Below are positions 5,594 to 34,878 of a stretch of DNA of 64,000 nucleotides, in pieces. Origin of the DNA: Candidatus Sericytochromatia bacterium (GTDB lineage: Bacteria; Cyanobacteriota; Sericytochromatia; S15B-MN24; UBA4093); contig JAKFCT010000014.1 of the NCBI GenBank assembly GCA_036676495.1, forward strand, positions 101,893-165,892. Reading direction: 5' to 3'. The translations under genes and the position numbers were made by a program. The notes beneath the pieces are model-generated. The model ran no database searches. It saw only the letters and a list, made by a program, of their open reading frames with translations, and was not told where the DNA came from. Within the stretch, counting starts at the first letter, position 1; each line of letters opens with the position of its first letter.

Positions 5594-7063
5594 CTAGAAC
5601 CAGCGGCTCATCACGACCTTGCGGTCGGTGTAGAACTCGATGCCATGCTTGCCATGGGCCTTGAGGTCCCCGAACATCGAGCCCTTGGCTCCCCCGAAGT
5701 TGAAGTAGCTCATCGGGGCGGCCACGCCGACGTTGATGCCGATCATGCTCGGCTCGGCCCGGTAGGCGAACTCCCGCGCCGTCTTCCCGCTCGCGGTGAA
5801 GATGGAGGTGGTGTTGCCGAAGGGATGAGCCTCGAGGATCGCCAGGGCATCCTCGAGCGACTCGGCGCGGAGCCAGGCCATGACCGGACCGAAGACTTCC
5901 TCGCGGGCGATCGTCATGTCGGGCTTGACCTTGTCGAAGAGGGTGGGCCCCAGGAAGTAGCCCTTGTTCTGACCATGGGACTTGCGGCCGTCGATCAGGA
6001 GCTCGGCACCCTCGTCGATGCCCCGCTGGATGAGGCCGAGGATGCGGTCCTTAGAGGCTTGCGAGATCACGGGGCCCAGCTCGGTGCCCGTGTCCATGCC
6101 GTTGCCGACCTTGATCCGCTTGATGCGCTCGAGCAAGGGAGCCTTGAACTTCTCGTAGGCCGCGCCCACGAAGATCAGGGTGGATCCCGCCAGGCAGCGC
6201 TGTCCCGCGCAGCCGAAGCAGGACTCGACCAGCGCGTCCACGCTCTTGGCCACGTCGGCATCCGGCATCACCACCACGAAGTTCTTGGCGCCGCCCAGGG
6301 CCTGCACGCGCTTGCCGTGCTTGGCGGCAGTCTCGTAGACGAACTGGGCCACGGGGCTGGACCCCACGAAGGAGACGCCCTGGATCAGCGGGTGCTCGCA
6401 CATGCCCTTGACGATCTCCTTGCCGCCGTTGACGAGGTTGACCACGCCCGGCGGCAGTCCTGCCTCATCCAGCAGCTCGAAGATCCGCTGCATGGAAAGC
6501 GGCACTTGCTCGGAAGGCTTCAGGACGAGCGTATTGCCGGTGGCGATGCAATGGGGAAGGAACCAGAGCGGCACCATCGGGGGGAAGTTGAACGGGGCGA
6601 TGACCGCGAAGACGCCCAGGGGACGGCGGTAGGCCACGCAGTCGATCCCCTTGCCGACGTCCTCCAGCGATTCCCCCTGCATCAACGAGGGGATGCCGCA
6701 CGCCACGTCCACAGAGTCGATGCCGCGCCGCAGGTCGCCGCGCGCCTCGGCCAGCGTCTTGCCGTGCTCGAGCGTGCAGATCTGGGCAATCTCCTCGAAG
6801 TTCTGCTCGAGCAGCATCTTGAACTTGAAGAGGTACTTGGCGCGCTCCGCCGGGGGCACCTGCCGCCAGCCGTAGAAGGCCTTCTGAGCGGCGCTGACGG
6901 CATCGTCGAGGTCGAGCATGGTCGACATCGGGATCCGGGCGAGGACCTCCTCGGTGGCCGGATTGACGACGTCGAGCAGTTCACTGGCCTTGGGCGCCGT
7001 CCACTTGCCGTTGAGGAAGTTGGAAAGCGTCTTGATCTGGGTTCCTTTGGACAACGTGGTCAC
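5594..7063 (-). CDS. mmsA: CoA-acylating (methyl)malonate-semialdehyde dehydrogenase
   Basis: IAPFNFPPMVPLW, SFVGSS, KRVQALGGAKN, FGCAGQRCLA, EEVFGPV, FGGAKGSMFGDL. Confidence 0.93.
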   Translation of the reverse strand: MTTLSKGTQIKTLSNFLNGKWTAPKASELLDVVNPATEEVLARIPMSTMLDLDDAVSAAQKAFYGWRQVPPAERAKYLFKFKMLLEQNFEEIAQICTLEHGKTLAEARGDLRRGIDSVDVACGIPSLMQGESLEDVGKGIDCVAYRRPLGVFAVIAPFNFPPMVPLWFLPHCIATGNTLVLKPSEQVPLSMQRIFELLDEAGLPPGVVNLVNGGKEIVKGMCEHPLIQGVSFVGSSPVAQFVYETAAKHGKRVQALGGAKNFVVVMPDADVAKSVDALVESCFGCAGQRCLAGSTLIFVGAAYEKFKAPLLERIKRIKVGNGMDTGTELGPVISQASKDRILGLIQRGIDEGAELLIDGRKSHGQNKGYFLGPTLFDKVKPDMTIAREEVFGPVMAWLRAESLEDALAILEAHPFGNTTSIFTASGKTAREFAYRAEPSMIGINVGVAAPMSYFNFGGAKGSMFGDLKAHGKHGIEFYTDRKVVMSRWF

Positions 7064-7091
7064 GGTTTGAACCTCCTATCGAATCGACGGC

Positions 7092-8408
7092 CTACTTCAC
7101 CCGCGTGAAAGCCGCGTCCAGCGCACTGATGGCTTCATCGACCTCGTTCATGGAAATCGTCATCGGCGGGGTCATGCGGATCACGTTGCCGTAGAGTCCC
7201 CCCTTGCCGATGACCAGGCCGTTCTCGCGAGCGGCTTCGACCACCCGCTGCAGCTCCTGCTTGGCCGGCTCCTTGGTCTTGCGATCCTTGACCAGCTCGA
7301 GGGCCTGCATCAGCCCCTTGCCCCGCACGTCCCCGATGAGCGTGTGCTTCGAGGCGAGTTCTTCGAGGCGCATGCGGAAGTACCCTCCGACGCGCGTCGC
7401 GTTGCCGGGGAGGTCGCGGCTCTCCATGGCGTCGAGGGTCGCGAGAGCGGCCGTCGAGGAGACGGGATTGCCCCCGAACGTGTTGAGATGCACCTTGCCG
7501 TTGAGGGCCGTCGCCACCTCTTCGTTGGTGATGACCCAGCCGATGGGAAGGCCGTTGGCCATGCCCTTGGCGCCGGTCATGAGATCGGGCTCGACGTCAT
7601 ACTGCTCGATCCCGAACCACTTGCCTCCCGTCCGGCCGAAGCCGGTCTGGACCTCGTCCGAGATGAAGAGGCCGCCGTATTTGCGGGCGATCGCCACCGC
7701 CTCCTTGAAGTAGTCCTGCGGAGGCGTGATGAACCCGCCCACTCCCTGGATCGGCTCGGCGATGAAGGCCGCGATTTCCCCGGAGGTGGTCGTCTGGATG
7801 ACCTCCTCGATGTCCTTGGCGCATTCCATGCCGCAGCTCGATGGGGTCTTGCCGAAGGGGCAGCGGTAGCAGTAGGCGTTCCGGGCATGGACGACCGGGA
7901 AGGCGTTGGGTTCGCCAATCCGCCACGGCGCATGCGCGGTCAGGGTCTGCACCCCGGCGGTGCCGCCCGAGTAGCAATGCCTCAAGGCCACCACCGTCTT
8001 GCGGCCGGTATGCGCCTGGGCCAGCTGGATGGCCTTCTCGTCGGCTTCCGAGCCCGAGTTGGTGAAGAAGCTCCGCTTGAGGCGGCCCGGGGTGATGCTC
8101 GCGAGCCGCTCCGCCAGCCGCGCCTGGGCCTCGATGGGGAAGAGCGTGCTCGTATGCTGAAGCGTGCGCATCTGGGCGATCGTCCGCTCGGTGATCTCCT
8201 CGTCGCAGTGTCCCACCGAGACGGTCACGATGCCGCCGAAGAAATCCAGGTACTCGCGGCCCTCGGCATCCTTGAGGCGGAAGCCCTTGCCCGAGACGAA
8301 GGGAAGCGGATCCTGATAATGCGAGCCCACGGACGGGAGCAGGTATTCCCGGTGCTTGGCGACGATCTCCTCGCGGGAGAGGTGGGTTTGGGTTTTTTCG
8401 ATGGCCAT
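7092..8408 (-). CDS. Class III PLP aminotransferase (beta-alanine/beta-aminoisobutyrate aminotransferase, AGXT2-like)
   Basis: YLDFFGGIVTVSVGH, FFTNSGSEA, EPIQGVGG, DEVQTGFGRTG, AKGMANG; context in the pyrimidine cluster. Confidence 0.88.
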   Translation of the reverse strand: MAIEKTQTHLSREEIVAKHREYLLPSVGSHYQDPLPFVSGKGFRLKDAEGREYLDFFGGIVTVSVGHCDEEITERTIAQMRTLQHTSTLFPIEAQARLAERLASITPGRLKRSFFTNSGSEADEKAIQLAQAHTGRKTVVALRHCYSGGTAGVQTLTAHAPWRIGEPNAFPVVHARNAYCYRCPFGKTPSSCGMECAKDIEEVIQTTTSGEIAAFIAEPIQGVGGFITPPQDYFKEAVAIARKYGGLFISDEVQTGFGRTGGKWFGIEQYDVEPDLMTGAKGMANGLPIGWVITNEEVATALNGKVHLNTFGGNPVSSTAALATLDAMESRDLPGNATRVGGYFRMRLEELASKHTLIGDVRGKGLMQALELVKDRKTKEPAKQELQRVVEAARENGLVIGKGGLYGNVIRMTPPMTISMNEVDEAISALDAAFTRVK

Positions 8409-27004: not shown

Positions 27005-27619
27005 ATGCCCAAGCGGCTCGCCTTGTCCATGGTGTTGCTCTTCGTTCCGCTGCATGCGTGGGCGGTTCCGAACCCCGATGCCATCTACCGGTTGACCGCC
27101 GACGAGGAGCGCCGGGTGCAAAAGGGCGAGATCATCGTGCATGTCGAGGAGACGGGCGAGCCCATCAAGCGCACCATGGTGACGGGCTTGATCGACGCGC
27201 CTCCCGAGGTGGTCTATCCCGTCTACACGGATTTCGAGAGCTACCCCGAGCTTTTCAAGAGCGCCCGCTCCTCGGACGTGATCAAGCGCGAGGGCAACGT
27301 CCTCACCTGCAAGGTGGTCATGGACTTCCCCTGGCCGCTGGGTAGCCGCTGGGTCAGCAACTACACGTACCTGGATCCGGCCAACACCTCCTTCACCTTC
27401 AAGAAGTTCGAGGGATCGGTCAAGCTCTACGAAGGGGCCCTCAAGGTCCTTCCCGAGTCGAAATCGCGCAGCCGGGTGGTGTACACCGCCAAGGTCGACC
27501 CCGACCTCCCGGTGCCGGCTTGGCTGGTGAACATGATCTCGGCGCATTACTTCCCGATGGCCGTGCAGCGTGTCCGCGACAAGGTGGCCAAGTCCGGAAC
27601 CCGCAGGGCGGCGGAATAA
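27005..27619 (+). CDS. Secreted SRPBCC/START-like ligand-binding protein
   Basis: Signal peptide (AWA cleavage site), IDAPPEVVY..TDFESYPE, DFPWPLGSRW, DPDLPVPAWLVN. Confidence 0.75.
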   Translation: MPKRLALSMVLLFVPLHAWAVPNPDAIYRLTADEERRVQKGEIIVHVEETGEPIKRTMVTGLIDAPPEVVYPVYTDFESYPELFKSARSSDVIKREGNVLTCKVVMDFPWPLGSRWVSNYTYLDPANTSFTFKKFEGSVKLYEGALKVLPESKSRSRVVYTAKVDPDLPVPAWLVNMISAHYFPMAVQRVRDKVAKSGTRRAAE

Positions 27620-27718
27620 GCGCCGGAATCGACCCGTCCGAAGAGGCGGCGAGAGGCGGTTGATCTCGGTCTCACCCTGAGCTAGGGTCGAGAATGCATC
27701 CGGGAAAGGAGGCCAGAG

Positions 27719-27904
27719 ATGGACCGCGAGATCCAAAGCTCCATGAGCAACGCCGATCTTTTGACGCCAACCACCTCCCAAAGCTTCAAGTGCACCAGGT
27801 GCGGCAACATGTACCCGGTGAGCCAGGAGACGTGCGACGTCTGCGGCAACCACTGCACCCCCGAGAGTTGCCGGGTGGTGGAAGCCAGCAACGAAGGCTA
27901 TTAA
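27719..27904 (+). CDS. Small Cys-rich putative zinc-ribbon protein (61 aa)
   Basis: GGAAAGGAGG RBS; CTRC-x10-CDVC-x3-C-x4-C. Confidence 0.7.
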   Translation: MDREIQSSMSNADLLTPTTSQSFKCTRCGNMYPVSQETCDVCGNHCTPESCRVVEASNEGY

Positions 27905-28030
27905 CCCAAGTCATTTTTAACGCTTCCTCCGCCGAACCTTAACCCCCGCTTTACCTGATTGCGGCGCGTCCCTTCGATAAGAGACGTGTACAAACTTAAA
28001 ATCACGTAAAGTGGAGGATAAATTAACCCC

Positions 28031-29299
28031 ATGCAGAAGCAAGTCAAGCTGCTTTCGGCGACCTTGGCGGTGGCGGCTCTCCTGGCGGGCTGCGGCCTCA
28101 ACCCGATCGCGTCGCTCTCCGGCGGCGACGGCCCGTTCCGGGGAGCGTCCGCCGGAGCTCCGTGGTCCCTGTTGACCTTCTTCGCACTCGACAACGACCT
28201 CGATCACGGGACCGGCATCGTGAACCGCCTGCATGCCGCTTCGCAGCGCGCCGGCAACGTCGCCTCGGTGACGTTCTACGACGGAGCCAAGAACAACGAC
28301 ACGCTCTACGTCTACGAGACCGCTCCCGGCGTCAGCGCCAAGACCGTCAACCAGCGGGAGGCCGATTCCGGCACCGCCGCGGCGCTCAATGCCTTCGTGA
28401 CCTTCGCGGGCCAGAACACCCCGGCCCAGCGCCGCGCCCTCTCGATGGCGGACCACGGCGGCGGGATCGTGCGCGGCATCTGCTCGGACTGGAACGGCCC
28501 CGGCGGCAAGAAGATCATCCACATGAACGAGGTCGCCCAGGTCCTGGAGCAGAACCCCGTCGAGATCATGCTCTTCGATGCTTGTTTCATGCAGATGGCC
28601 GAGGTGGGCTACGAGCTCCGCAAGGGCGCCAAGGTGTTGATCGCCGCCCAGACGACCACGCGGGGCGACTTCCCCTACGAGAACATCGTCAAGGTCCTGG
28701 ATGCGAACCCCAAGGCGGAGAGCCGCCAGATCGCAAGCGAGCTGCTGAACGTGATCGCCGACAACGCGCGCTACGAGGTGGCGTTCGGCGCGATGGACAT
28801 CACCAAGAGCGAGGAGCTCGCGCGCCGGATGGCCGCGCTCTCGGACGTGCTCCTGGTGAAGATCAAGGATCGCGGGACCAAGAAGGCGATCGCCAGCGCC
28901 ATCCGCGGCTCCATGGCCTATGCCAACGAGACCTCGCCGGGCCTGACGATGTACAACCACTACCGCGACTTGATCGACGTCATGGCGAACCTCGCCAAGG
29001 TCGGAGACGCGGAGATCGCAGCCGCCGCCCAGGCGGTCACCGTGGCGGCCAAAGCCTCCATCATCGGGGAGCGGCACCGCGGTGCCGGCTTCTTCGGCGG
29101 GGAGCTGAACCTGGACAAGGCTTCCGGCCTCGCAATCTACGCCCAGGTCGATGGGCCGGTGGAGTCCAAGTACCTCCAGCGCGCCTGGAACCGGGACACC
29201 CGCTGGGGTGATTTCCTCGCGCAGCTGAACTCGGGCGGTTCCTGGGGCCCCGCGGTCCAGCAGGACAAGTACCCGTACGCCTTCCCCTCGCGCAACTAA
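28031..29299 (+). CDS. Clostripain-like (C11) cysteine peptidase lipoprotein
   Basis: LAG-C lipobox, ALDNDL, DHGGG (His) and LFDACFM (Cys) catalytic motifs, ASGLAIY. Confidence 0.85.
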   Translation: MQKQVKLLSATLAVAALLAGCGLNPIASLSGGDGPFRGASAGAPWSLLTFFALDNDLDHGTGIVNRLHAASQRAGNVASVTFYDGAKNNDTLYVYETAPGVSAKTVNQREADSGTAAALNAFVTFAGQNTPAQRRALSMADHGGGIVRGICSDWNGPGGKKIIHMNEVAQVLEQNPVEIMLFDACFMQMAEVGYELRKGAKVLIAAQTTTRGDFPYENIVKVLDANPKAESRQIASELLNVIADNARYEVAFGAMDITKSEELARRMAALSDVLLVKIKDRGTKKAIASAIRGSMAYANETSPGLTMYNHYRDLIDVMANLAKVGDAEIAAAAQAVTVAAKASIIGERHRGAGFFGGELNLDKASGLAIYAQVDGPVESKYLQRAWNRDTRWGDFLAQLNSGGSWGPAVQQDKYPYAFPSRN

Positions 29300-29348: not shown

Positions 29349-29750
29349 TCACGCGTCTTGATCCGGCAGCAGCCGCATCACCGCTTCCGGCACCGGGGCG
29401 GGACGCCCAGTCTTGGCGTCGAGGATCAACCCGACCTGCCGGGCATCCGCGACCACCTCGCCGCTCTTGCGGCTCCGGAACGTGGCTTCCAGGGTGAGCG
29501 AGGTCCGTCCCGCCTCCACCAGGCGCATCTCGCCGCGGACATGATCCGGGAAGCGAACCGGCGCACGGTAGTTGATGGTCGTGTGGACCAGCGTGGGGAA
29601 GAGTTGCTGGGAGACGAGGTCTTCCAGGGACATGGCCGAACTCAGGTAGGCCATGCGGAGGTCTTCCAGCCATCGCAGGTAGACGAGGTTGCTGACGACC
29701 CCCGCGAAATCGATGTCGTAGGTCTTGACCTCGATGTCCAGGGCGATCAC
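29349..29750 (-). CDS. Acyl-CoA thioesterase (4HBT/YbgC hotdog fold)
   Basis: YDIDFAGVVSNLVYLRWLE motif; GTG start overlapping the upstream stop. Confidence 0.88.
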   Translation of the reverse strand: MIALDIEVKTYDIDFAGVVSNLVYLRWLEDLRMAYLSSAMSLEDLVSQQLFPTLVHTTINYRAPVRFPDHVRGEMRLVEAGRTSLTLEATFRSRKSGEVVADARQVGLILDAKTGRPAPVPEAVMRLLPDQDA

Positions 29751-29959
29751 GCGTTGACTTCCTCGCTGAGCCAGGTGACGGTCGCAGGACGCTGCGCCGC
29801 CGGTTCGGGATCCATGTCGCGGCGACCGCGGAGGAGTTCGCGGTCGATATCCTCCTGGGTGATCGTGAGGCCTTCGAACCAGGTGGGGCCGTTGAGGGGC
29901 TTTCCGGCGATCCAGCGGCGGACGGGGCGGAGCAGTTTTCCGGGGCGGATGAGTTTCAT
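29747..29959 (-). CDS. Small hypothetical protein (70 aa)
   Basis: AAAGGA RBS, fills the gap between tetR and thioesterase, GTGA coupling. Confidence 0.6.
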   Translation of the reverse strand: MKLIRPGKLLRPVRRWIAGKPLNGPTWFEGLTITQEDIDRELLRGRRDMDPEPAAQRPATVTWLSEEVNA

Positions 29960-29971
29960 GGCTTTTCCTTT

Positions 29972-30595
29972 CTAGGGGGACGTCGGGGCGAGCGTCGGTT
30001 TCAGGTAGCCCAACAAGGCGTTGAGGCAGTGGTTGCGGTAGCGTTCGAAGGCGGCCGGATCCGGATCGAAGAGCATCTGGATGCACATGCCGTCGATCAC
30101 GGCCCGGCCGAATGCGGCGGCCTCCGCGAGATCCACCTCGCGGAAGCAGCCCTGACGGATGCCCTCGGTGAGAATGGCTTGGTTGATGTCGCGGCAGAGC
30201 GCATAGAACTCGGCGTTGACCTGGCCGAAGAGCGGGTTGCGCGCGCCCTGGCTCAGGAAGTCCAGGTAGATCGTGTAGAAGTCACGAAGCTCCGACGCTC
30301 CCTGGAAGACCGAGTCGACCACGGCGGTGAGGGCTTGCTCGGGATCGGCGACGGCCAGGGCGCGGGCTTTCATGCGGCTGCCGATGCGGGCGATCAGCCA
30401 GCTCCAGCAGGCCCGGAAGATCTCCTCCTTGGTGTGGAAGTAGTAGACCGTGACTCCCTTGCTGACTCCGGCGCGCTGGGCGATATCCTCCAAGGTGATG
30501 TCCTTGAAGGGCTTGGTGAGCAGGACCTGATACGCCGCCTTGAGGAGTTCCTCGCGGCGAAGCGCCTGCTGCTCGGGATCGACCTTGCGCGCCAT
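29972..30595 (-). CDS. TetR family regulator (BetI-like C-terminus)
   Basis: ITLEDIAQRAGVSKGVTVYYFHTKEEIF; AGGAGG RBS before ATG 30595. Confidence 0.92.
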   Translation of the reverse strand: MARKVDPEQQALRREELLKAAYQVLLTKPFKDITLEDIAQRAGVSKGVTVYYFHTKEEIFRACWSWLIARIGSRMKARALAVADPEQALTAVVDSVFQGASELRDFYTIYLDFLSQGARNPLFGQVNAEFYALCRDINQAILTEGIRQGCFREVDLAEAAAFGRAVIDGMCIQMLFDPDPAAFERYRNHCLNALLGYLKPTLAPTSP

Positions 30596-30607
30596 CGCGG
30601 CCTCCTT

Positions 30608-30655
30608 TATCTGACCAGTTAGATAGTTTATACGCCAGCCGACCGGAGCCGTCAA
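30608..30655 (-). promoter_or_regulatory. tetR promoter (TTGACG-N17-TATAAA) with imperfect palindromic operator TATCTGACCAGTTAGATA at 30608-30625
   Basis: Consensus hexamers on the minus strand; palindrome overlaps the predicted TSS. Confidence 0.65.
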
Positions 30656-30684
30656 CCGGGTTTTCTTCGGATCCCGGCGTGGGA

Positions 30685-30713
30685 TTGACCTGTCAATTGA
30701 CAGGTGGTAGACT
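30685..30713 (+). promoter_or_regulatory. Promoter TTGACC-N17-TAGACT containing perfect palindrome ACCTGTCAATTGACAGGT (30688-30705)
   Basis: Read directly; ATG 30720 lies 6 nt after the -10, no SD. Confidence 0.7.
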
Positions 30714-30719
30714 CGGACG

Positions 30720-31226
30720 ATGTTGATTGATGCCGACGAGTTGCGCCAGTTGATCCGGGGGCGCATCCAGAACCTCGAGACCATCGGATCCGAGATCTCG
30801 AACCACCTCGACCTGATTGACCGCGCGGCGCGCGGTCTGCCCGTCGACCGCGAGCAGGTTCTTCACGCGACGGGCCTGATCCTCGACAACCTCTACCGCG
30901 GCCTGCTGAGCCCGCGCATGACCGTCCCCAAGGATTTCTGGTTCTCGGCGCTGGGCCTCGCCATCGCCCGCGCGCATGCCCATGTCATCCGCGACGACGA
31001 AGTCATGAGCCAGGCAGATGCCGCCCATGCCCTGGGCGTCTCGCGGGAGTACATCTCCCAGCTGGTGGAATCCGGCAAGGTCGCCACCGTGGTCCGGGAG
31101 GCCGCCGCCCCCCGCTCCCGGAAACAGCCCCGGGAAATGCTCTACCGCAGCAGCGTCGAGCGGCTCCGGAGCGCGGAGCGATCGCCCAGACGACAGAAAG
31201 AGGTGGCGCTTGAAGGTCGTCCATAG
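30720..31226 (+). CDS. HTH protein (C-terminal excisionase/MerR-like HTH, unrecognised N-terminal domain)
   Basis: MSQADAAHALGVSREYISQLVESGKV...LYRSSVERL. Confidence 0.8.
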   Translation: MLIDADELRQLIRGRIQNLETIGSEISNHLDLIDRAARGLPVDREQVLHATGLILDNLYRGLLSPRMTVPKDFWFSALGLAIARAHAHVIRDDEVMSQADAAHALGVSREYISQLVESGKVATVVREAAAPRSRKQPREMLYRSSVERLRSAERSPRRQKEVALEGRP

Positions 31227-32226
31227 CCCCACCCACCTGATTCACAACCCGCGCTGGGAGTTCACCCGGGGACGCCGCATCTTCAGCAAGGACATCCCCT
31301 CCCGCGCCACCATCATCCGAGAGGCCCTGCTCGCCTCGGACATGGCCGTCACGATCGTTTCCCCCGACCCCCATCCCCTCTCCCGGATCGAAGCGCTTCA
31401 CGGCTTCGTCGGTTTCCTGCGCGATGCCGCCGCCACCCTCGACGACGACGCGCTCATCTATCCCGACGTCTTCCCGGTCCGCCGCAAGGTCAACCGCCCC
31501 GAGCACCAGCCCGCGCTCGCCGGCTATTACTGTTTCGACACCGGCACTCCCATCACCCGGCATACCTTCGAGGCCGCCAAGAGCTCGGCCGATTGCGCCC
31601 TCACCGCCGCCTCGCTGCTGCCCGAGGAAGGGGTGATCTATGCCCTCTGCCGTCCTCCCGGGCACCATGCCGAGCGCGAGGTCTTCGGAGGCTACTGCTA
31701 CTTCAACAACCCGGCCCTGGCGGCCAACCTCCTCGCCGAGCACGGCCGCGTCGCCGTTCTCGACATCGACTACCACCACGGAAACGGGACCCAGGACATC
31801 TTCTACTCCTCGTCCCGCGTCCTGACGATCTCCCTCCACGGCGACCCGGCCGTCACGTACCCCTATTTCTCCGGGTTCGCCGACGAGCGGGGCGAAGGGG
31901 AAGGCCTCGGCTACAACCTGAACCTCCCGCTGCCTCCCGGCACGCACCCCACCCTCTACCTCGCCGCCCTGGACGAGGCGCTCAGCGCCATCAAACGCTT
32001 CGATCCCCAGTACCTGGTCGTCGCGGCCGGGTTCGACACCTGCCGGGGAGACCCGGCGGGCAGCTTCGATCTCTCCACCCGCCACTACCCGGTGATCGCC
32101 TCGCGCATCGCGGGGCTGGGCATCCCCAGCCTCATCGTCCAGGAGGGGGGCTACCGCACGCAGACCCTCGGCAAGAACGCGGTGGCCTTCCTTCGTGCAT
32201 TCAGAAAGGAGCTCACGGATGATTAA
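31210..32226 (+). CDS. Histone deacetylase family / acetylpolyamine amidohydrolase-like enzyme
   Basis: RPPGHHA, GGYCYFNN, LDIDYHHGNGTQ, SLHG, AGFD, QEGGY all intact; TTG start at 31210 with GAGG RBS. Confidence 0.92.
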   Translation: MKVVHSPTHLIHNPRWEFTRGRRIFSKDIPSRATIIREALLASDMAVTIVSPDPHPLSRIEALHGFVGFLRDAAATLDDDALIYPDVFPVRRKVNRPEHQPALAGYYCFDTGTPITRHTFEAAKSSADCALTAASLLPEEGVIYALCRPPGHHAEREVFGGYCYFNNPALAANLLAEHGRVAVLDIDYHHGNGTQDIFYSSSRVLTISLHGDPAVTYPYFSGFADERGEGEGLGYNLNLPLPPGTHPTLYLAALDEALSAIKRFDPQYLVVAAGFDTCRGDPAGSFDLSTRHYPVIASRIAGLGIPSLIVQEGGYRTQTLGKNAVAFLRAFRKELTDD

Positions 32227-33280
32227 AGACCCGATCTCCCCGTTCGAGACGCCCTCGGAGGCGCTCGACGTCGACGGATCCTCGGATCTCCGCGCTGACG
32301 TTCCCCTGGACGCGTCCCCTCAGGACGAGATCCCCCAGGACGTCGCTCCCGCCTCCTCAGAGCCCTCGAACAAGGAAATGGGCGTCATCGACCTCACGCT
32401 CGACAAGGGCGTGGATATCCGCGCCTACGGCAAGGTCTATGCCCTGGATTACAGCATCCGGGAGGAGGGCTGCGAGATCGATCTCACCATCGACTACTAC
32501 AACCGCCGCCTCAAGGTGCTCAACTTCGAAGGCGATCTCCCCGACATCTGCCGCCGACTCGATTACCTCGCCAACAAGAACCAGTTTGATAAGATCTTCA
32601 TCAAGGCCACGGCCCAGGACTGGCAAGGCTTTCTGGCGCATGGCTACATGCTCGAGGGCATCATCCTTCACTACTTCAACGGCGAGAACGCTTACGTCGT
32701 GAGCCGCTTCCTGAGCCGCGACCGGATCACCAGCCCGACCCTCCTCGAAGAGTCCGCGCTGATCCAGGAGTTGATGCACCAGCCCCGCAAGAACCGCCCG
32801 CTGGACCTTCCCGAAGGCTACACCCTGACTCTGGCCACCGAGGACGACATCCCGGGGCTGGTCATCCTCTACAGCCATGTCTTCGAGTCCTACCCCTCGC
32901 CCCTGACCATGCCGGATTTCCTGCTCTCCACCATGCGGCGCAACCTCGTCTACGCGGTGATCAAGGACGGTGACGGCAACATCGTGAGCGCCGCCTCCGC
33001 CGATCTCGACACCAAGCATCGCAACGCGGAGATGACCGACTGCGCCACCTTCCCGTCCGAGCGCGGCAAGGGCCTCATGCGGATTCTGCTGGTCCGCCTC
33101 GAGGACGAGCTCCGGCGCCGGGGCATCCGCTGCGCCTACACGCTCGCGAGGGCCACCGCCCCGGGCATGAACAAGGTCTTCTACGACCTCACCTACGAGT
33201 ACTGCGGCAGGCTCATCAACAACTGCGACATCTCGGGCGGCTTCGAGGACATCAACATCTGGTCCAAGCGTCTCGCCTGA
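32219..33280 (+). CDS. Putative beta-lysine N-acetyltransferase (AblB/YodP-like GNAT)
   Basis: DYYNRRLKV, KIFIK, VFESYPSPL, NAEMTDCATFPSERGKGLM, YTLARA..PGMN, GRLINNCDISGGFEDINIW. Confidence 0.85.
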   Translation: MIKDPISPFETPSEALDVDGSSDLRADVPLDASPQDEIPQDVAPASSEPSNKEMGVIDLTLDKGVDIRAYGKVYALDYSIREEGCEIDLTIDYYNRRLKVLNFEGDLPDICRRLDYLANKNQFDKIFIKATAQDWQGFLAHGYMLEGIILHYFNGENAYVVSRFLSRDRITSPTLLEESALIQELMHQPRKNRPLDLPEGYTLTLATEDDIPGLVILYSHVFESYPSPLTMPDFLLSTMRRNLVYAVIKDGDGNIVSAASADLDTKHRNAEMTDCATFPSERGKGLMRILLVRLEDELRRRGIRCAYTLARATAPGMNKVFYDLTYEYCGRLINNCDISGGFEDINIWSKRLA

Positions 33281-33355
33281 GACCCGCGATTCAAAGCCCG
33301 TCGTTTCTACAGGTCAGCTACGCTGCCTTTCGAAACAGCCGCGGGCGCTCGTGCC

Positions 33356-34801
33356 TTAGCTACCGACCACGTAAACGGGATCGGCCTCGAGATCCAGGCT
33401 CAGCGATCCCTGCGCGAAACTGGCGCTCTTGGGCTTGCCCAGCTTGTCCAGGACCTGTCCCGAACCGAGGGGAAGCGACAGCGAGGTCTTGGCGCCCGTG
33501 GACCAGAGCACGTAGAGGGGCTTTCCGTCAGCACGCTTGAAACGGTAGCCCTGCACGTCGCCGCGGGTCAGGTCCGCCTCGAAGCGGGCTCCGGTGAGCT
33601 GCCCCGTCGCGATCTGATAGGCGTGGTAGCCCCGGGTCTTCTTCGAGAGGGTCGCCTGATCGATCAGGCCCATGTTGCGGTGCCCGGGATTGGTGAAGAC
33701 CGCCCATTGCACGGCCTCGACGTCCCCCTGGGCGATCGCCGCCGCGAAGAGCTTCGGCACGTAACGCGCCTGCTCCTCCGCGTTGTCGGAGGTGAAGCCC
33801 GTCTCCGAACATGCGAACGTCTTCCCGGAGATGCCGTGTTTCGTCAGGGTTTCCTTCATCGCCCGGTAGCGGCCCAGAAAACCCCAGTCCGAATTGAGCA
33901 CGCCGTTCGAGCTGCTCGCATCCGACCCGTAGGCGTGGAAGTCCACGACGTCGAAGTAGCGGGCGCCGCCATGCGCCAGGATGGCCTCCAGATACCCCTC
34001 GTAGCCCAGACCGCCGAGGGTGATCTTGGCCTGCGGGTCGATGCCCTTGACGATGGTGTGACCGACCTGCAAGAGCCTCACGTAGTCCTGGACCGAGCCC
34101 GTCCAGTAGCGCTGGCGGCCGTCCGAGGTCTTGGCTCCGGCCTGGAGGTCTCCGGAGGGGTAATCCGGCTCGTTCCAGATCTGCCAGTACTGGATCTTGC
34201 CCCGGTAGCGGGTCGCCATGTCGAAGAGGTAATCGGCGAAGTAGTTGTCGGGGTTGCTTTTGACGCCGGGCTTGTAGACGTCCGTCCCGTCGGAGAAGAT
34301 GGGAAGCTTCAGGCCTGCCGGGACCGTGTACTTGCCCGGAGAGTTGGCATCGAAGCCCGTCTTGGAGGCATACTTGGGATCCGACGAGGCCCAGTCGGGA
34401 GTGTCCGTGACCATGGCCTGGACTTTGACGCCCATCTGCGCGAAGCGCTCGGCCTTCTTGTCGAAGTAATCCATCCACTTGACGTTCTGGTGCTTGGAGA
34501 CCTCGACGTACTTCCAGTTCCAGCCCTCGCGCAGGGTGCTCATCCCGAGGTCGCGCATCAGGGCATAGCCGGCTTCGTGGGTGTCGTCCTTGCCCCGGGG
34601 CACGCTCTGGTTTCCGAAGCGCGTCATCAGGGCGGGATCGTCGACACGCCCACCTCCGTCGAGGTTCGGGATGCCGCTGGGGGTGATGCGGGGGACGTTT
34701 CCTGCAGGATCGGCGGCGAACGGGGCGGTTCCGCATGCCGGGATGGCGATCGCCCCGGTCAGGATCAGCAGCATGCGTCGAAAGTGTTTCATGGTGGTCA
34801 T
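33356..34801 (-). CDS. Clan GH-A glycoside hydrolase lipoprotein (GH39/GH5-like)
   Basis: Signal ending IPA-C, WQIWNEPD acid/base, DVVDFHAY, SETG nucleophile. Confidence 0.75.
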   Translation of the reverse strand: MTTMKHFRRMLLILTGAIAIPACGTAPFAADPAGNVPRITPSGIPNLDGGGRVDDPALMTRFGNQSVPRGKDDTHEAGYALMRDLGMSTLREGWNWKYVEVSKHQNVKWMDYFDKKAERFAQMGVKVQAMVTDTPDWASSDPKYASKTGFDANSPGKYTVPAGLKLPIFSDGTDVYKPGVKSNPDNYFADYLFDMATRYRGKIQYWQIWNEPDYPSGDLQAGAKTSDGRQRYWTGSVQDYVRLLQVGHTIVKGIDPQAKITLGGLGYEGYLEAILAHGGARYFDVVDFHAYGSDASSSNGVLNSDWGFLGRYRAMKETLTKHGISGKTFACSETGFTSDNAEEQARYVPKLFAAAIAQGDVEAVQWAVFTNPGHRNMGLIDQATLSKKTRGYHAYQIATGQLTGARFEADLTRGDVQGYRFKRADGKPLYVLWSTGAKTSLSLPLGSGQVLDKLGKPKSASFAQGSLSLDLEADPVYVVGS

Positions 34802-34878
34802 CAGCATTCCTCCGAGCTTTTGGTACCCGGATCACCCGCGAAACTGAACCCCAACTCACCCGCTTGCGCCCATGCGAA

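Follow-up and report, generated by a model that had tools for sequence, protein, structure and literature searches.

N-epsilon-acetyl-beta-lysine is a classic compatible solute. In two papers that cite Pfluger et al. 2003 (PMC9049628, PMC3543383), its synthesis is attributed to two enzymes, AblA and AblB, of methanogens and some bacteria, and overexpressed yodP-kamA is described to make N-acetyl-beta-lysine in Bacillus subtilis (PMC9049628); a paper on compatible solutes in cyanobacteria (PMC11505929) does not mention lysine. Here we analyzed a stretch of 64,000 nucleotides (nt) of contig C14 in the 4.1-Mb genome of a Candidatus Sericytochromatia bacterium (G000; related genomes are numbered from G001 onward), which we refer to as the window and which contains an operon of three overlapping genes encoding a helix-turn-helix (HTH) protein, a deacetylase of the histone deacetylase (HDAC) fold and an AblB-like acetyltransferase of the GNAT family. 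This unit is a variant of the AblB system, new in its coupled HDAC-fold deacetylase and in having a regulator of its own. In the original prediction, made from the DNA letters alone, this combination was not known to have been described, and neither an AblB-HDAC pair nor an N-acetyl-beta-lysine deacetylase is described in the literature searched, which for the most part did not include subscription journals. The operon of this soil bacterium may represent the first known route for dismantling the stress solute N-acetyl-beta-lysine. Our preferred reading, to which we assign slightly less than an even chance, is that the operon regulates itself and sets the acetylation state of beta-lysine, acting as a switch that branches off lysine fermentation.

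Among the known systems closest to the operon are two gene arrangements. With the AblA/AblB system the operon shares an acetyltransferase that passes the AblB model and belongs to a clade with members adjoining AblA-type aminomutases. In contrast to that system, the operon lacks an aminomutase (the KamA of the genome is divergent and located in a catabolic cluster), and it adds a translationally coupled deacetylase, an HTH regulator and an N-terminal stretch on the acetyltransferase. The other arrangement is a Bacillota cluster of genes for an AblB-like GNAT, an M20 enzyme, an aminotransferase, CoA-transferases and KamA, which we take to be of the yodTSRQP-kamA type. This cluster, too, combines an AblB-like GNAT with a deacetylase, but the latter is of the M20 type and not an HDAC, the genes for the aminotransferase, the CoA-transferases and KamA are not found beside our operon, and the Bacillota GNATs form a clade separate from the operon GNAT.

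The operon and its two enzymes

As predicted originally, the three genes are coupled: both the list of open reading frames (ORFs) and the DNA itself show overlaps of 17 nt between the HTH and HDAC genes (31210-31226) and of 8 nt between the HDAC and GNAT genes (32219-32226). Shine-Dalgarno-like motifs (AAGAGG and AAGGAG, respectively) are located 6-9 nt 5' of the HDAC and GNAT starts. Compared with G002, most nucleotide differences are found at third codon positions (57 of 91 in the HTH gene, 117 of 173 in the HDAC gene and 108 of 164 in the GNAT gene), which indicates that all three frames are real genes under purifying selection. In addition, the TTG start of the HDAC gene is supported by the alignment of the protein from residue 1 onward (MKVVHSP) with the N-termini of solved acetylpolyamine amidohydrolases (APAHs). 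There was no Rfam match at gathering score between positions 28000 and 35000, and the sequencing runs matching the stretch were soil-metagenome DNA only, with no RNA run among them; the DNA analyzed here may itself come from one of these runs.

The GNAT protein scores well above the curated cut-off of the NCBIfam model TIGR03827 (GNAT_ablB, putative beta-lysine N-acetyltransferase; 291.2 bits versus 205.1), with an alignment covering model positions 4-266 of 266, and a genome-wide search gave the same result; its earlier assignment as AblB-like on the basis of motifs is therefore upheld by hidden Markov model (HMM) search. Ahead of the model start the protein carries approximately 88 extra residues. 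In a structure model (predicted local distance difference test, pLDDT, 86.5; 53 sequences), residues 1-45 are disordered and are followed by a beta-rich N-domain (approximately residues 55-190) and the GNAT domain (approximately residues 200-353). No solved relative was found by sequence; in a fold search, the predicted C-domain matches RimI/SpeG-type GNATs among many others.

The HDAC protein matches PF00850 with 227 bits (E 3.7e-67), and its four best solved relatives, 9gkz, 6phr, 3men and 3q9b, are all APAHs, which align with it from end to end at approximately 45% identity. All 10 aligned homologues share H152, H153, D187, H189, D276 and Y315, which are spaced as in classical HDACs; we take these residues to be the His-His dyad, the Asp-His-Asp zinc ligands and the catalytic Tyr. 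An APAH-type enzyme with intact catalytic and zinc-binding motifs had been proposed for this gene, and the family match, the solved relatives and the invariant residues all agree with this. The operon enzyme thus resembles the bacterial APAHs in its single-domain size, its full-length similarity and all catalytic residues, but its gene context is related to beta-lysine and not to polyamines. A complex prediction for HDAC and GNAT returned a score of 0.00, which makes no call either way.

Beta-lysine metabolism in the genome

According to the original prediction, a lysine aminomutase is absent. This holds for the operon and for the 64-kb window, as no KamA-family match was found on contig C14, but it does not hold for the genome, in which such matches are present on contigs C46 and C7 only. 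C46 (55019-68406; locus L110) encodes a complete lysine-fermentation cluster consisting of kamB, kamD, kamE, kce, kdd and a kamA of divergent sequence type. The KamB, KamD, KamE, Kce and Kdd proteins each score above their own NCBIfam cut-offs, and the KamA-family protein (464 amino acids) reaches 231 with TIGR00238 (cut-off 199) and 257 with the AblA model (cut-off 525). The location of kamA in a lysine-fermentation cluster indicates that beta-lysine is a resident metabolite of this organism. The match on C7 (48778-49560) was considered as a second type of aminomutase and rejected, as this fragment at the end of its contig shares 92% identity with the C46 gene; its probable source is another strain or contamination of the bin, the assembly of G000 being rated 6.7% contaminated.

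Of the 27 genomes from this order of Sericytochromatia, 25 have KamA-family matches and 24 have KamD, with or without the GNAT, which suggests that lysine fermentation via beta-lysine is a general trait of the order. Across the genomes examined, KamD scores above its cut-off in eight of ten that encode a GNAT-amidase pair, compared with none of 14 control genomes.

Conservation of the deacetylase-acetyltransferase pair

The AblB model is passed in eight of 41 related genomes, and HDAC orthologues with at least 65% identity are found in five of the 41 (G000, G001, G002, G010, G021), the next matches being at approximately 45%. In all five, the GNAT gene is located directly 3' of the HDAC gene with a stop/start overlap of 4 or 8 nt. 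These five genomes cover three families of the order, while neither gene is present in the other seven members of the family to which the window belongs; the distribution of the pair within the order is patchy. In the remaining three AblB-positive genomes, which belong to one genus, a sodium/solute symporter of the SSS family is encoded 3' of the GNAT.

Beyond this order, species genomes were scanned with the GNAT, and the best 80 of 490 relatives were considered (seven Sericytochromatia loci that match loci of the numbered genomes were counted once). In a quick, midpoint-rooted tree from which two short rows were dropped, a clade of 38 rows (Shimodaira-Hasegawa-like approximate likelihood ratio test, SH-aLRT, 98) is set apart from 41 Bacillota rows. 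An HDAC gene adjoins the GNAT gene in eight of 43 non-Bacillota loci, four from Sericytochromatia, two from Elusimicrobiota (L051, L052), one from Bacteriovoracaceae (L054) and one from another metagenome-assembled genome (MAG; L064, convergent genes). The order in the Elusimicrobiota is SSS-HDAC-GNAT, and 4-nt overlaps between successive genes were read in L052. The pair is thus not only kept in relatives, a check proposed together with the original prediction, but also recurs across phyla.

The same 43 loci have further recurrent GNAT neighbours, namely genes for an SSS symporter (13 loci), a MerR regulator (five loci) and KamA (three loci; L044, L055 and L062, with 668, 677 and 534 bits for the AblA model, whose cut-off they exceed). 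In four further loci (L034, L038, L068, L072), all from MAGs labelled as deltaproteobacterial or Myxococcota, an Amidohydro_3 enzyme of approximately 525 amino acids takes the place of the HDAC, its gene starting 17 nt after that of the GNAT (e.g. L038:11022-12599); its identity was established with Pfam on one locus, to which the other three were joined by blastp clustering. Among 37 Bacillota-type loci, finally, 35 encode an M20 enzyme (as stated for the Bacillus cluster in the original prediction), 34 a class-III aminotransferase, 34 and 33 the two CoA-transferase subunits, and 32 KamA. Three unrelated amidase folds therefore accompany the AblB-like acetyltransferase family.

Relatives of the deacetylase encoded with lysine 2,3-aminomutase

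A scan of metagenomes with the HDAC, of which the best 80 of 530 relatives were considered, yielded one near-identical HTH-HDAC fragment and three contigs with an adjacent AblB-like GNAT. In addition, 24 of these 80 relatives, corresponding to roughly half of the contigs that extend far enough upstream, are located 3-5 kb downstream of a KamA-family gene; a tie to beta-lysine genes therefore also exists on the side of this APAH branch. The gene order in the 24 loci (found among L124-L201, e.g. L124:708-6338 and L186:1703-7431) is KamA, two Ddl-like ATP-grasp genes, a protein of approximately 580 amino acids consisting of an N-domain and the HDAC, and a small RimI-like GNAT; in forms of approximately 755 amino acids, HDAC and GNAT are a single fused protein, with the GNAT on the C-terminal side. 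The small GNATs match a streptothricin acetyltransferase model weakly (E 2e-4, far under the cut-off).

This module resembles the operon in its related HDAC domain and in the pairing or fusion of a deacetylase with an acetyltransferase in a beta-lysine context. It differs in that KamA and two ligases are encoded upstream of the HDAC, whereas the operon lacks these genes, in that its GNATs are small and RimI-like instead of AblB-like, and in the additional N-domain, which is missing from the operon HDAC. The ATP-grasp genes were not found elsewhere in G000 either, where tblastn with both ligases gave one match of 24% identity on C8. The possibility that the N-domain of the approximately 580-residue proteins is AblB-like, which would make the operon pair a split fusion, was considered and found unsupported: the first 270 residues of the L124 protein have no Pfam match, and hhalign of 29 such N-domains against 53 AblB-like GNATs gave a probability of 0.2%, with the general acetyl-CoA loop alone being aligned.

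In a quick tree of 87 HDAC rows, the five Sericytochromatia enzymes are placed on the side of a 69-row clade of KamA-cluster enzymes, while seven other AblB-linked HDACs and one unlinked relative form a separate clade of eight rows (SH-aLRT 95). Because AblB-linked HDACs fall in two separate places of this tree, which contains neither an outgroup nor a solved APAH, the AblB-HDAC pairing seems to have arisen at least twice.

Promoter, operator and regulator

A sigma-70-type promoter precedes the HTH gene (Table 1); shuffled sequence averages 0.2 such sites in the same search. Its -10 element ends 6 nt upstream of the HTH start codon (ATG), and the transcript is accordingly predicted to be leaderless. 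The spacer of the promoter contains the perfect palindrome CTGTCAATTGACAG, of which there is one exact copy in the window, and one exact copy plus one with a single mismatch in the whole genome. The promoter-palindrome block is kept in G001, G002 and G010, the latter with two tandem palindrome copies, although the DNA upstream of the block is unalignable; G021 has neither the HTH gene nor the palindrome. Among 114 loci examined, the core palindrome is confined to the six that bear the HTH gene.

Table 1. Positions of the operon, its control sites and other features within the window
Feature	Position	Strand	Remarks
Sigma-70-type promoter, TTGACC-17 nt-TAGACT	30685-30713	+	Sole promoter-like site in 30400-33500
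Perfect palindrome CTGTCAATTGACAG in promoter spacer	30690-30703		Likely operator of the HTH protein
HTH regulator gene	30720-31226	+	168 amino acids; ORF list and DNA reading
HDAC-fold deacetylase gene	31210-32226	+	338 amino acids; TTG start; acetylpolyamine-amidohydrolase type
AblB-like GNAT gene	32219-33280	+	353 amino acids; ATG start
4HBT-type thioesterase gene	29349-29780	-	
TetR regulator gene	29972-30595	-	BetI-type C-domain
Gene for 483-residue protein	33356-34807	-	
Lipoprotein and peptidase genes	27005-29299	+	SRPBCC/polyketide-cyclase-like; clostripain family (C11)
Dehydrogenase-like and aminotransferase genes	5594-8408	-	

The HTH protein itself is 64-85% identical in four homologues. 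Its HMM matches (AbiEi_4, HTH_3, excisionase) are all sub-threshold, but the earlier assignment as an HTH protein is supported by its predicted structure (pLDDT 77), which consists of an N-terminal helical hairpin and a C-terminal, probably HTH_17/excisionase-like winged helix at approximately residues 95-150. With Foldseek, this C-terminal unit of approximately 56 residues matches Xis (4j2n, E 0.05, template-modelling score TMt 0.75) and BldC, the E-values ranging from 0.05 to 0.3 at TMt of approximately 0.75, and the language-model neighbours of the protein in the Atlas are HTH_17 clusters, in which HTH_17 is found in 13-45% of members.

The second copy of the promoter and palindrome, TTGACCTGTCACTTGACAGGTGATA, is located on another contig (C62:25019-25043; approximately positions 3020-3044 of L204, minus strand) and forms a 25-nt repeat of the first with two differences. 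Approximately 30 nt further downstream begins a gene for a GNAT of 283 amino acids (L204:2148-2999, minus strand), which is followed by one for a CN_hydrolase of 300 amino acids (L204:1178-2080, minus strand). The same arrangement precedes the orthologues of these two genes in G002 (79% and 89% identity, respectively). A palindrome-binding factor, most simply the HTH protein, thus appears to control two acetyltransferase/amidase operons, and the operon on C62 may be a second member of the HTH protein's regulon.

Proposed function and alternative explanations

In the mechanism that we propose, KamA of the lysine-fermentation cluster on C46 would supply beta-lysine, which the GNAT would convert with acetyl-CoA to N-epsilon-acetyl-beta-lysine. 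The HDAC would cleave the latter to beta-lysine and acetate and would thereby return beta-lysine to the KamDE-Kdd-Kce route. The HTH protein, presumably responding to a ligand, would bind the palindrome in its own promoter and repress rather than activate the operon, and it would also control the second acetyltransferase/amidase operon on C62. A regulated side-branch of beta-lysine metabolism is the simplest account, because both enzymes are tied by context to lysine 2,3-aminomutase and because the organism makes and degrades beta-lysine.

Several observations weigh against this proposal. The HDAC is about equally similar to the solved polyamine deacetylases (approximately 45% identity) and to the KamA-linked HDACs (44-55%), and the activities predicted for both clades rest on sequence and gene context. 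Translational coupling of two exact antagonists would result in a futile cycle unless their activities were controlled after translation; since coupling expresses both activities together, it would fall to control of the enzymes themselves to determine the net direction. The near-universal presence of KamA and KamD in the order renders their co-occurrence with the GNAT within this group uninformative, and both Elusimicrobiota genomes carrying the pair show no KamD and have KamA-like genes only below threshold. Furthermore, N-acetyl-beta-lysine is reported to have given no osmoprotection in B. subtilis (PMC9049628, citing Muller 2011).

The futile cycle would be avoided if the two enzymes never opposed each other. 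In this alternative, which we regard as unlikely, the GNAT would acetylate beta-lysine first and the HDAC, standing in for the M20 enzyme without being its orthologue, would deacetylate a later intermediate of an acetyl-protected catabolic route, for example 4-acetamidobutyrate or a CoA ester. In Pseudomonas, beta-lysine is degraded via 6-N-acetyl-beta-lysine and 4-acetamidobutyryl-CoA (our literature search returned nothing relevant on this route). The Bacillota GNAT loci, with their M20, aminotransferase, CoA-transferase and KamA genes, indeed look catabolic, and a thioesterase of the 4HBT type is encoded just upstream of the operon in G000 and G001. However, aminotransferase and CoA-transferase genes are not among the recurrent neighbours of the GNAT in the 43 non-Bacillota loci, and the best G000 homologues of the Bacillota cluster enzymes are scattered on C14, C5 and C63, the homologue on C14 being a class-III aminotransferase that is paired with a methylmalonate-semialdehyde dehydrogenase and lies 22 kb from the operon. 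Moreover, the genome already encodes the KamDE route for beta-lysine.

The similarity of the HDAC to APAHs, which are its four best solved relatives, could alternatively point to polyamine or diamine homeostasis, with the GNAT acetylating putrescine, cadaverine or spermidine and the HDAC acting as an ordinary APAH. The modelled C-domain of the GNAT resembles SpeG-type spermidine acetyltransferases (among many GNATs), and the CN_hydrolase on C62 shows a distant similarity to N-carbamoylputrescine amidase, at 67 bits versus a cut-off of 410. We nevertheless consider this improbable, as the GNAT passes the AblB equivalog model and not a polyamine acetyltransferase model, its clade has members adjacent to ablA, and the closest large clade of HDACs shows linkage to KamA. 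Overall, the evidence from gene context favours beta-lysine derivatives over polyamines as the predicted substrates.

An alternative in which the module handles an acetylated amino compound imported from outside (such as N-acetyl-beta-lysine, beta-lysine or N-epsilon-acetyl-lysine) instead of an endogenous pool fits the Elusimicrobiota best: these genomes show no evident beta-lysine pathway, and their SSS symporter forms one overlapping operon with HDAC and GNAT. The frequency of the symporter beside the GNAT in non-Bacillota loci is also consistent with uptake, as is a 57%-identical symporter in G000. This homologue is, however, unlinked to the operon, no transporter is encoded in or beside the operon in the five Sericytochromatia genomes, and the genome can itself make beta-lysine, which makes uptake a rather improbable explanation for the operon described here.

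A function in protein lysine acetylation, if the originally used term 'writer/eraser' is taken in that sense, or in resistance to beta-lysine-containing antibiotics such as streptothricins is very improbable: although enzymes that modify proteins are known from both folds, RimI-type enzymes appear among the fold matches and the small GNATs of the KamA clusters show their weak streptothricin acetyltransferase match, both enzymes are placed in small-molecule branches of their families (the HDAC with APAHs and not with protein deacetylases, the GNAT in a curated small-molecule family), and no target-protein or antibiotic gene recurs near the GNAT loci.

Returning to the regulated beta-lysine switch, a more far-reaching version of it would be that the HDAC is the first N-acetyl-beta-lysine deacetylase, which together with the AblB-like enzyme forms a regulated switch between a fermentation intermediate and a neutral stress or storage solute, that such a switch has been assembled repeatedly (with two APAH subfamilies, Amidohydro_3 and M20 enzymes), and that in this genus one repressor governs it jointly with a second acetyltransferase/amidase operon. 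We put this forward tentatively, as somewhat less probable than not. Its coupling to AblB-like genes in several phyla makes the deacetylase a concrete, testable candidate for the breakdown step, for which the literature searched describes no enzyme, and this candidacy is strengthened by the unrelated amidases that hold the same place in other lineages. If correct, this would provide a physiological substrate for a large, unassigned branch among the bacterial enzymes of the HDAC fold, connect lysine fermentation with the stress physiology of the little-known non-photosynthetic relatives of cyanobacteria, and offer a simple regulator-operator pair for study.

Neighbouring genes

The genes for the 4HBT-type thioesterase and the TetR regulator are both divergent from the operon. 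The thioesterase gene also adjoins it in G001 (78% identity). The TetR gene was considered as a member of the unit and ruled out; it is not found beside the operon in G001, G002, G010 or G021, whereas the operator stays wherever the HTH gene does. Upstream of these genes, an SRPBCC/polyketide-cyclase-like lipoprotein and a clostripain-family peptidase are encoded, for which we saw no link to the operon. The gene on the other side of the operon, convergent with that of the GNAT, encodes a protein of 483 amino acids that lacks Pfam matches and whose N-terminus resembles a signal peptide; it is kept downstream in G002 (83% identity). Near the start of the window, a methylmalonate-semialdehyde-dehydrogenase-like gene accompanies an aminotransferase gene that is the genome's best match to the Bacillota one (38% identity); the two look like an ordinary catabolic pair for beta-alanine or branched-chain compounds.

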